Shown here piece after piece: positions 15,001-18,000 of a DNA stretch of 58,498 nucleotides. The DNA is taken from sequence record MW584206.1. The stretch is one strand, 5' to 3'. The position numbers were made by a program. Source of the stretch: Mycobacterium phage prophi91-4. Within the stretch, counting starts at the first letter, position 1. The number at the start of each line of letters is the position of its first letter.

Positions 15001-18000
15001 TGAAGGACGCCGACGAGCATTTGGCGCCTCTGCTCGAGAACAAGACGCTGGCCGATCTGGTGCGGTTCATTGAGAATGACGCGACGGATCTGGATGCGGT
15101 GAGCGAATGACTCTCACCTTCAAGCCCGCCACTCGTGAGGCGGCGTTCGCGCGCATCGCGCTGACGGGACCGTCCGGGGCAGGTAAGACCTACACCGCGC
15201 TGGCCTTGGCGACAGCGCTATCCGAGAACGTCGGGTTCATCGACACCGAGCGGGGCAGCGCATCGAAGTACGTGGGCCTTAACGGCTGGCACTTCGAGAC
15301 CGTGCAGCCCGACAGCTACGCGCCACTGTCCCTGGTCGAGCTGCTGGGGATCGCAGCCGGCGCTGAGTTCGGCTGTGTCGTCATCGATTCTCTGTCGCAC
15401 TACTGGATGGGTGTCGACGGCATGCTGGAGCAGGTCGACAGCAGGGCCCATGGAAGCAACACGTTCTCGGGATGGAAGGAAGTTCGCCCCGAGGAGCGCC
15501 GCATGGTCGACGCCCTGGTTGCCTTCCCAGGTCATCTGATCGTGACGATGCGCTCCAAGACCGAGTACGTCATTGAGGAGAACGAGCGCGGCAAGAAGGT
15601 GCCCCGCAAGGTGGGCATGAAGCCTGAGCAGCGCGAGGGCATCGAGTATGAATTCGACCTCGTCGGCGACATGGATCTGGACAACACCCTGACCGTGGTG
15701 AAGTCGCGGATTCACACGCTGGCCAAGGCCGTGATTCCCATGCCGGGCGATGATCTGGCCGCTGCGATACGCGAGTGGCTCTCCGACGGAGAGAAGATCC
15801 CGACGGCCCGGGAGTACCGTCAACGGGCCCTGGCCATGGACTCTATGGACGAGCTCAAGGTCCTCTACGACGAGGTGGTTGGGAACCGGCTCGCGGTGGC
15901 CCCCACGATCGATGCCGATGGCATCCCCACCGTGCTGGGAGATCTGATCAAGACTCACGCCACGCGGGTCAAGAAAGCCGCCGAGGTAGCCGCCAAGCCC
16001 GCGTCCAAGGGCAGCGGCGCGACTAAGGAGACCGCCGATGGATAGCGGCCAGCCTAGGATCGGCTCCCTATTCTCCGGAGCCGGCGGGCTGGATCTGGCG
16101 GTCGAGCACGTCACCGGTGGCCGCACCGTGTGGCACTGTGAAGCCGACCCGGATGCCTCGAAAGTGCTTGCCGCCCACTGGCCCGGTGTCCCCAACCTCG
16201 GTGACATCACCGCGGTCAACTGGTCGCAGGTCGAGGCCGTGGACATACTCTGCGGCGGCTTCCCCTGCCAGGACGTGTCCGCTGCCGGCCGACGCGCTGG
16301 CATCGCGCTGGGCACCCGATCAGGACTGTGGCTCGAATATGCCGAGGCTATCAACCAACTACGACCACAGCTCGTGGTCATCGAGAACGTCAGAGGTCTG
16401 CTTAGTGGATATGCCCATCGCGCAATGGAACCCGAAGACGATGACTTGGGAGGCCGATCAAGTCGACCTGTTCTGCGAGCAGCGGGAGCTGTACTCGGCG
16501 ACCTGGCCGACCTCGGGTATGACGCGCAATGGACAACTATTGCCGCCTCCGAGGTCGGGGCCCCACACTGCCGCTACCGGGTCATCTTTACTGCCCACCC
16601 CAAGGGCCAGCCGTGGCGCCTCAACCAGCGAGACCCGCGATGCACTACTGCCCACACCGACGACGCAACCAGAGACCGGCAACGGTCACGCCCGCAACCT
16701 TGGTGCGGAGGTCAAGACGCTACTCCCAACCCCGCGGGCGACCGACGGGACGAAAGGGGGTCCGAATCAACGGGGTTCATCGGGCGATCTGATGCTGCCA
16801 TCGGCGGTCTGCCAATTGCTGCCGACACCGAGGGCGATGGATGCTCACGGATCGATGGTGGCGCCAGCGTCCCGCAAGTATGTGGAGGACGGGAACGGCA
16901 GTCTGCCGGAAGTGTTGGGAGCACATCTGGATCTCTAGACCTGCTACCGACCCCGGCGGCTAGCCGCTACCCGAGCAATCGATCGCCGAGCCCGGGGGCA
17001 TCCGTGCGTCCGAGCCTCGACTCGATCACGGACTTGCTGCCCACGCCGGGCGCATCCGACGGCAGCGGTGGCCGTTCCGCCAGTGTGACTGGCGGTGTGC
17101 GTCCGTCGGGGGCGAAGCGCAGTGTCCCGCTCACCGACTTGCCGCTGCTGCTGCCGACACCGAAGGCGACAGATGCGCACAGCTCGTCGCCAGCCGACCT
17201 GAAACGAAACGACCCGGGGTTACGGGCGATTGATGGTTTGTTGCCCACGCCCTGCGCCAGCGATGCGACAGGCGGCGGCGCTCATCCCGACAGCCGGGAG
17301 GGTCACTCACGCCAGCTGATTGACTATGCGCTACTGAACGGCTCGCCAGAGTGGGGCAAGTACGAGCCCGCGATCCGGCGCTGGGAAGCCATTACCCGGG
17401 AGGCGCCGTCACCGACGGAGCGCGGCGTAAAGGGGAATCCGCGTCTGGCCGCGCGATTCTCCGAGTGGATGCAGGGCTGGCCGCTCGGATGGGTTACTGC
17501 CGTTGCTATTTCGCGCAGCGCCATGCTGCGCATCATCGGCAACGGAGTTGTGCCACAGCAGGCCGTCGCGGGGCTGTACTGGCTACTCGGCGTTGGTGAG
17601 ATGACGGCATGACCGCCGAGTTCACCTCCGAGGCCATGCGGCTCATGCGTGAGCGCTCTGGAGGGCTCTGTGAGGTCCAGTGGCCCAACGTGTGTCAGGG
17701 CAGTGGCAGTCAGCTGGTCGGTCACCATCGACGGCCCCGGGGCAATGGCGGCACCAAGCGCCACTCGTCGCGGCTCGCAGCCAACGGTCTGATGGCGTGC
17801 ACCTGGTGCCACACCTTCCTGGAGGCCGGAGAGCGCGGGGAGGCTCGCACCCTCGGGTTCATCGTGGACCAGAACGCGGAGCCCGCGGACGTCGCGGTGT
17901 TCTACCGCCATGAGCTGAACGTGCTGCTGGACAACGACGGAAACTTGGAGGCGGCATGAAGTGTAAGAGGCCCAGCTGCCATCGCGCGGGTATCCGGCGC

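Follow-up and report, generated by a model that had tools for sequence, protein, structure and literature searches.

The 58,498-nucleotide (nt) sequence of Mycobacterium phage prophi91-4 (record MW584206.1; this whole stretch is referred to below as the window) carries on its plus strand a gene for a predicted C5 DNA cytosine methyltransferase (16038..17612, frame 0), inside which a second gene appears to be nested in the +1 reading frame. The +1 product of positions 16405–16938 is hereafter called X; it is not annotated in the window. Comparison with relatives leads us to the firm prediction that X is a real nested gene with its own start, under selection as a protein, and that the region 16405–16938 is a same-strand dual-coding pair under purifying selection in both frames. 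As a working model, which we consider probable, the two proteins encoded by this region would form a two-chain enzyme, with X giving recognition units in trans.

The frame-0 open reading frame (ORF) is uninterrupted over 524 amino acids (aa). Its N-terminal part contains motifs I (FSGAGG, 16071–16088), IV (GFPCQ, 16257–16271), VI (ENV, 16383–16391) and VIII (HCRYRV, 16566–16583), and its C-terminal part contains WGKYEPAIRRWE (17352–17387) as well as motifs IX (RLAARFSEWMQGWP, 17442–17483) and X (GNGVVP, 17538–17555). Three-frame translation of 16038–17612 agreed with the first-pass annotation of this DNA in that eight LLPTP repeats are divided equally between two frames of one intact methyltransferase ORF. 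Units 1–4 start at 16588, 16645, 16720 and 16816 in frame +1 (segment 16588..16935, part of X), and units 5–8 start at 16941, 17034, 17148 and 17238 in frame 0 (segment 16941..17351), directly ahead of WGKYEPAIRRWE and motifs IX–X. Between 16602 and 16937, frame 0 translates into low-complexity sequence with zero LLPTP, as had also been noted. There are no other LLPTP clusters in the 58.5-kb window, isolated LPTP being found only at 57237 (plus strand) and 752 (minus strand).

The X gene (16405..16938, plus strand) comprises 177 codons and a TAG stop. It starts with GTG at 16405 (an alternative ATG lies at 16411), and a Shine-Dalgarno-like AGAGG (16392..16396) precedes this GTG by 8 nt. The N-terminal domain of X (VDMPIAQWNP...YSATWPTSGMTRNG...SSLLPTP) lies over frame-0 motifs VI–VIII in what is predicted to be a doubly constrained overlap (16405..16601); in the segment that follows (16602..16937), only X appears constrained as protein, frame 0 being a stop-free, unconserved linker. 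The LLPTP unit that is invariant in the family, LLPTPRATDGTKGGPNQRGSSGDLMLPSAV, is read in the X frame at 16720–16809. Peptides ATDGTKGGPNQR and GSSGDLMLPSAVCQLLPTPR are specific to X, and the frame-0 linker contains the stretch ...DPRCTTAHTDDATRDR.... The switch of frame that the first-pass annotation had placed at a T-run near 16600 cannot be maintained, as +1 coding would start about 190 nt upstream, at GTG 16405, and overlap motifs VI–VIII; the +1 ORF of 16117..16938 described there is an open stretch of the frame, of which the predicted coding sequence begins only at 16405.

The frame-0 product is predicted, from sequence and model alike, to be a C5 DNA cytosine methyltransferase with an M.HhaI-like fold and with methylation activity. 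It matches PF00145 (E-value, 7e-38) over residues 8–197, so that Pfam coverage extends to the N-terminal half only, and its match to TIGR00675 (114.8 bits) exceeds the cut-off. Motifs I, IV, VI, VIII, IX and X are all found on this one chain, as had been claimed, and stand in canonical order. In the AlphaFold2 (AF2) model, the predicted local distance difference test score (pLDDT) is >90 at residues 1–200 and 440–520, and <50 at residues 200–400. Foldseek analysis of the model gave M.HhaI and M.HaeIII as the best matches (E-value, ~1e-13), the region between motifs VIII and IX being unmodelled. P0121, 'DNA cytosine methyltransferase [Mycobacteroides abscessus]', matches the frame-0 protein with 100% identity and is encoded on 27 contigs of up to 5.3 Mb; the identical product is also deposited under several NCBI accessions. 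Because the identical protein occurs on 27 contigs, the window can be regarded as an M. abscessus prophage, the sequence of which is reproducible.

Searches with X by tblastn gave matches in 436 phage records. Six annotated phage genes were inspected (DLane, prophi104-2, Philonius, prophi91-1, Babsiella and Maddy2), and in 6/6 the X match lies in +1 relative to the annotated methyltransferase frame, with 42–60% aa identity; the annotation of Babsiella includes a nested 'DNA methylase domain protein'. Among 5.8 billion proteins, 1630 called X homologues of 100–307 aa were found, none of which has a Pfam domain. All of them start with (M/V)PxPIAxWNP...SETWPxSGMTRxG, and the LLPTP units come after; recurrent unit types appear in differing order among the relatives. 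The exact sequence of X was absent among 15 billion predicted proteins. A phmmer search of 1.84 billion representatives with the 68-aa N-terminal domain of X yielded 911 clusters (50% identity), the match beginning at residues 1–15 of the called protein in about 137 of the best 150 phmmer matches.

On three metagenome contigs, the gene caller picked X in place of the methyltransferase; a full-length ORF for the latter is nevertheless present in frame 0, with 200–260 R/G/D/A-rich codons without LLPTP between motif VIII and WG.Y.PAI.RWE. The uncalled methyltransferase leaves 'intergenic' gaps of 350–860 nt in L008 (3646–4001), L009 (3143–4001) and L010 (3604–4001), of which the gap of L009 holds a minus-strand call that is probably spurious. 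The opposite failure is seen with annotators at NCBI and in phage groups, who kept the methyltransferase and missed X.

The pattern of variation follows the codons of X. In 61 distinct DNA versions of LLPTPRATDGTKGGPNQRGSSGDLMLPSA, the entropy at the three X codon positions is 0.30, 0.16 and 1.21, respectively. For the invariant unit, the mean pairwise aa identity is 93.9% in the X frame versus 46.3% in frame 0, at 77.8% nt identity, and the window differs from L012 at 12, 22 and 57 sites of X codon positions 1, 2 and 3, respectively. The first-pass annotation had named, as the outcome contrary to its reading, homologues with a conserved frame-0 linker in which the +1 LLPTP repeats are absent; the opposite was found, the linker being unconserved and the +1 units strongly conserved as protein.

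Within the part of the gene where both frames are conserved, a frame-0 codon alignment of 35 lineages with <90% nt identity was examined. Upstream of the X start, the G+C content at third codon positions (GC3) is about 0.75–1.0 in every frame-0 codon column. Inside the overlap, and only there, about 20 frame-0 columns have GC3 <0.4 (0.03–0.13 in some of them), often with low third-position entropy, and these A/T-held frame-0 third positions are the second positions of X codons. In the window itself, frame-0 GC3 is 0.58 in the overlap versus 0.75 on both flanks, and rare frame-0 codons (AGT, TAT, CAA, AGA) occupy these columns. Because these frame-0 third positions are fixed as A/T, it is likely that the N-terminal domain of X is constrained independently and is not a by-product of frame 0. 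The same fixed positions ruled out the candidate explanation that the X N-terminus passively reflects motifs VI–VIII.

The start of X is conserved as well. Among 40 distinct sequences, GTG stands 4 codons (once 5) before 'IA.WNP' in 35, the others having ATG, and nearly all of the 40 have a purine block (GAGG, GGGGG or GGAG) 7–10 nt upstream of the X start; in the window, AGAGG is provided by frame-0 motif ENV-R-G, the Arg of which has the rare codon AGA. We therefore give next to no credence to the proposal that +1 conservation as a whole is a noncoding, passive by-product of frame 0 or of constraint at the DNA or RNA level. The C-terminal tails of long X proteins do correspond to the +1 reading of conserved frame-0 WG.Y.PAI.RWE, but in the central region frame 0 is unconserved (46% vs. 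94%) and variation has a three-base periodicity in the X phase; moreover, the frame-0 synonymous sites of the overlap are held as A/T against the codon bias of the genome, and the start codon and the Shine-Dalgarno-like site are conserved.

Two further features of the overlapping frames were observed. The tail G.STNP.F.AG..S..... of long X proteins (P0005, P0017, P0058 and others; +1 frame of the window, 17350–17400) is the +1 reading of frame-0 WG.Y.PAI.RWE...PAP.PTEP, and is a passive frame-0 by-product, in contrast to the remainder of X. Motif VIII of the prophage (16566–16592) reads HCRYRVIFTA versus HRRERVFIVA in the family, with both arginines retained, and the X residues that overlap it (AATGSSLLPTP) remain canonical, as if the constraint on X had prevailed over frame 0 at these codons.

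For counting stop codons, the X-only segment was taken from 65 distinct loci of cultured phages, prophages and metagenomes (31–356 codons per locus, 8012 codons in total). Frame 0 is stop-free in 62/65 of these loci, whereas synonymous-codon shuffles of X predict about 100 frame-0 stops and just 21.6 open loci. All of the 11 frame-0 stops observed fall within 3 loci with another frame arrangement. The third frame contains 218 stops over the same segment, and a control with the equal relative phase (−1) in non-overlapped C-terminal parts gave 165 stops in 8077 codons and was open in 3/37 loci; for the window alone, the probability of an open frame under the null is 0.066. From this comparison of both frames it follows that the frame-0 chain is therefore probably read through the linker without frameshifting. 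Frame 0 is accordingly best described as predicted to be held stop-free by selection, with a linker that is itself unconserved as protein, and the purifying selection expected in both frames of an overlapping pair is seen in synonymous constraint, X-phase variation and stop avoidance. The suggestion that the enzyme tolerates a scrambled linker and uses repeats 5–8 only stands in part: frame 0 is kept stop-free, but repeats 1–4 belong to a separate conserved protein.

Across the 65 loci, the window-like arrangement is found with the invariant unit in X in 47 loci and with no invariant unit found in another 6, which makes the two-frame layout the commonest state (53/65). Four loci encode a one-frame enzyme that retains a short X, three are split into alpha and beta chains, and five are incomplete. 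In 21 of the 47 loci, frame 0 lacks any LLPTP unit and all of the units are in X. In L045, L073, L081, L082, L086, L089 and L071, by contrast with these, motifs VIII and IX enclose the units, the invariant one among them, in a single reading frame; because of this position, the LLPTP units are likely to be the variable (target-recognition) region of the family, and these one-frame relatives support what the first-pass annotation had supposed for the repeats. In the split loci L080 and L041, the alpha chain has motifs I–VIII and the +1 beta chain combines the X N-terminal domain, units and motifs IX–X, the two ORFs overlapping. A single PHROGs profile, phrog_1008, spans X and the C-terminal part. 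The window's last frame-0 unit has its homologue in the final X unit of L008, showing that the point of return from +1 to 0 varies among relatives.

This distribution bears on two of the explanations offered earlier for the split repeats. An error in sequencing or assembly, or recent decay to a pseudogene with a pair of compensating indels, would be compatible with the single-base homopolymer indels that rearrange frames in Kingsley (C7), Ovechkin (G5), L044 (G8) and L067 (G7). However, the identical 524-aa product on 27 contigs, the layout of 53/65 distinct loci, selection in both frames and the lack of a homopolymer at the boundaries make it extremely unlikely for the window, and the earlier proposal of compensating indels, mis-assembly or a pseudogene was abandoned. 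Phase-variable methyltransferases are common in bacteria, and G7–G8 tracts lie exactly at the frame changes of L044 and L067. Nevertheless, a methyltransferase switched by a repeat tract is scarcely credible here: no homopolymer of >5 nt and no simple or dinucleotide repeats were found at 16590–16610 and 16925–16945, the three G5 runs of the window gene (16756, 16994 and 17108) are all away from the frame boundaries, and the arrangement, instead of varying from one close relative to the next, is fixed across lineages. The homopolymer phase switch was likewise given up, as the boundaries have no slippery or repeat tract.

The exceptions to the layout that were inspected at the DNA level (Kingsley, the Ovechkin-like L047, L044 and L067) all coincide with homopolymers. 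In Kingsley (L001, ~3000), C7 inside motif VIII divides the gene into gp70 and gp71; in L047 (~2700), G5 joins the X N-terminal domain to the frame-0 remainder; in L044 (~2510, G8) and L067 (~2505, G7), motifs I–VI are joined to X. For these, sequencing error, genuine mutation and a phase-variable tract of the lineage concerned are all conceivable.

At the junction of the frames (16924..16955, plus strand), an 8-nt near-repeat, GAYCTS-TA-GACCTG, is found: X terminates with ...CTG GAT CTC TAG, and frame 0 reads CTA GAC CTG CTA CCG (DLLPTP). This shape is common to DLane, Kingsley, Ovechkin, Shauna1 and L045. The near-repeat junction (X '...DL' followed by TAG; frame 0 'DLLPTP') is kept across the distant lineages L002, L001, L047, L021 and L045 despite a differing preceding X unit, and an 8-nt deletion at this site would shift the downstream units and motifs IX–X into the X frame, giving a beta-like chain.

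The junction invites the explanation that a single eight-unit polypeptide is made by two programmed frameshifts, from 0 to +1 after motif VIII and back at the X stop, or that bypass of the stop fuses X to the C-terminal part. In its favour are the homology of units in the two frames, the conservation of the junction GAYCTS-TAG-ACCTG in several lineages and, for the window, the possibility that peptidyl-tRNA-Leu on CUC pairs anew with CUA, 2 nt downstream and beside the stop codon. Against this, a stop-free frame 0 across X would be needless, the X N-terminal domain upstream of the shift site is selected and has its own start, the return points vary widely with no common slippery heptamer, and the DLane junction (CUG to GUA) excludes equivalent re-pairing. 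We regard this explanation as quite improbable. In place of the fixed conserved slippery site and closed zero frame of a frameshift gene, varying return points and an open zero frame were found; a stimulatory RNA structure was not searched for. A ribosomal hop or +2 slip at CUC-UAG-AC-CUG as the main mechanism was set aside, as re-pairing fails in DLane and frame 0 is open, while frameshifting or stop bypass, though disfavoured, may operate as a minor route. The conserved stop junction (..DL-TAG / DLLPTP) may additionally permit a fused isoform that runs from X into the C-terminal part.

The two-chain working model can be put as follows. Frame 0 would yield the full-length catalytic chain, in which the stretch from motif VIII to the first LLPTP unit serves as an unconstrained read-through linker and forms a disordered loop in the usual place of the variable region. 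Frame +1 would yield the independently initiated 177-aa X, consisting of a beta-rich N-terminal domain and four LLPTP units, including the invariant one, so that in prophi91-4 the recognition units would be divided between two polypeptides. X would dock on the catalytic chain via its N-terminal domain and supply its recognition units in trans. We infer that X is needed for methylation because every variable-region unit is in X in 21 relatives.

The principal alternative is that X is a genuine nested gene with a function unrelated to methylation (regulatory, as a partner of the homing endonucleases inserted beside it, or some other phage role), to which LLPTP units were moved by indels in a repeat-rich region. 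One-frame enzymes keep a short X though they need no extra units, LAGLIDADG ORFs in Gordonia phages and metagenome proteins directly precede X or are fused with it, and X is tied to methyltransferases by co-occurrence, with no structural or family match. However, in the 21 loci with all LLPTP units in X, an enzyme without a variable region would have to be under selection, and the invariant unit in X of those loci is the in-frame unit of one-frame enzymes. Furthermore, the X N-terminal domain heads the chain with motifs IX–X in the split relatives, and X lies within a methyltransferase gene at all of the loci with examined context. An unrelated function is therefore unlikely in our judgement, though, mainly on account of the short X in one-frame enzymes, it deserves more weight than an artefact or phase variation.

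Several points weigh against the two-chain model itself. X has no detectable PDB or Pfam relative: comparison with Pfam and NCBIfam gave no family, PHROGs yielded just phrog_1008 with its generic label 'DNA methyltransferase', the X alignment used as a profile against PDB gave nothing even at an E-value of 10, and Foldseek comparison of the X model with PDB gave noise only (E-value, >1). None of the ten C5 methyltransferase motifs was found in X. In the AF2 model of X, residues 1–60 form a small beta domain (pLDDT, 71–91), and the LLPTP part scores about 50. Because AF2 leaves the LLPTP units unfolded in X and in the frame-0 chain alike (pLDDT, ~50), structure prediction can neither separate a junk linker from real units nor indicate how the units act. 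The basis for a role of the LLPTP units in DNA recognition is their position in one-frame relatives, and the short +1 X that persists in these enzymes is unneeded by a model of recognition in trans. The loci share ancestry, so that the counts given above are not independent events, the call of synonymous constraint being made on the 35 lineages with <90% nt identity. Finally, that X is translated, binds the methyltransferase and is needed for methylation has in each case the status of an interpretation of sequences.

Multispecific phage C5 methyltransferases of the SPR and phi3T type have several short tandem modules between motifs VIII and IX. By description, the LLPTP units resemble them as tandem short modules between these motifs, but here the modules are spread across two frames and two polypeptides. 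The two-chain model has its closest parallel in M.EcoHK31I (YGGCCR), the beta chain of which is encoded wholly inside the alpha gene in another frame (PMC2836561). X is likewise entirely nested in another frame of a methyltransferase gene, namely in +1 within 16038–17612. The beta chain of M.EcoHK31I has motif IX and its alpha chain has motifs I–VIII, X and the recognition domain, whereas here frame 0 retains motifs IX (17442–17483) and X, and a novel N-terminal domain and variable-region units would make up the nested chain. The overlap in M.EcoHK31I is shorter, as compared with 534 nt here and >1.2 kb in relatives with 420-aa X proteins, and the requirement for a second chain is inferred from sequence for X, in contrast to M.EcoHK31I.

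In M.AquI (CYCGRG), the alpha chain comprises motifs I–VIII along with a portion of the variable region, and the beta chain comprises the rest and motifs IX–X; fragment complementation is also known for monomeric C5 enzymes (PMC3404938). Compared by description, exactly this split, with alpha ending by the variable region and a separate beta chain carrying motifs IX–X, is shown by the relatives L080 and L041. In the window, on the other hand, frame 0 runs through a junk linker to motifs IX–X, so that the catalytic core would be a single chain, and only some of the recognition units would be on the second chain.

The ShiLan domain represents out-of-frame insertions of an HNH homing endonuclease into an actinophage methylase gene, with the host frame remaining open (Arsenault, Gosselin and Gogarten 2025, PMC11855218). 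X resembles it as a hidden GTG-start ORF in an alternate methylase frame, with a stop-free host frame that forms a low-confidence loop, and the same phenomenon is seen in Gordonia phage Ailee, where a LAGLIDADG ORF closely precedes X. The ShiLan ORFs are sporadic selfish insertions, whereas X is a fixed, family-wide part that carries the enzyme's own variable-region units. The ShiLan gp65 methylase appears to belong to another methylase family, there being no mention of cytosine or of these motifs in PMC11855218 and PMC9957025.

In Ailee (L042 1981–2700, NC_055773; likewise H92–H105), this LAGLIDADG ORF lies after motif VI and before the X start, in frame +1, and its TGA stop directly abuts the X ATG; over about 160 junk codons the methyltransferase frame 0 stays stop-free, and the insert is annotated as 'LAGLIDADG/HNH endonuclease' beside the methylase. 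LAGLIDADG is fused to X in P0252 and P0347, and a LAGLIDADG-like insert lies within X in P0344. Judging from the protein sequences alone, the called proteins P0304 (371 aa), P0258 (279 aa) and P0261 (374 aa) are hybrids, the types being motif I with an HNH-like insert leading into X, motifs I–VI fused to X at ENV, and the X N-terminal domain joined to the frame-0 linker and C-terminus; the last type is from an M. abscessus relative.

The methyltransferase gene overlaps both of its neighbours. Its first codon, ATG at 16038, falls within the last 8 nt of the upstream AAA_24 ATPase gene (15107–16045), and ATGA at 17609–17612 combines its TGA with the overlapping ATG of the ORF that follows, which encodes a Cys/His-rich protein of 116 aa with no Pfam match. 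The overlaps at both ends suggest translational coupling in an early or replication operon.

A broader proposal can be put forward tentatively, and may well prove too strong: that a large family of C5 methyltransferases from actinobacterial phages and prophages is made up of obligate two-chain enzymes, whose recognition modules reside in a same-strand overlapping gene of considerable length (0.5 kb here, >1.2 kb in relatives), and that in the course of evolution single indels shuttle modules between frames and polypeptides. If the enzymes were obligate two-chain ones, modules could move between frames because both frames would always be translated.

Long same-strand overlapping genes in double-stranded DNA phages and bacteria are rare, contested and routinely dropped by annotation pipelines. 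The comparative support for the present overlap is unusually strong (911 clusters, 1630 homologues, codon-phase periodicity, synonymous constraint and stop avoidance), and the locus exhibits both annotation failures, X being missed by annotators and the methyltransferase being dropped by metagenome callers. In the full-text literature searched, including that on overlapping or nested methyltransferases of mycobacteriophages and the PRFect paper, neither X nor the LLPTP units were found described. Should X act as a recognition subunit in trans, M.EcoHK31I, the one nested C5 subunit known from experiment, would be joined by a large natural family, which would also constitute a natural system for module migration between overlapping frames. 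It would, in addition, bear on the methylation specificity of Mycobacteroides abscessus prophages and of mycobacteriophages, including therapy candidates.

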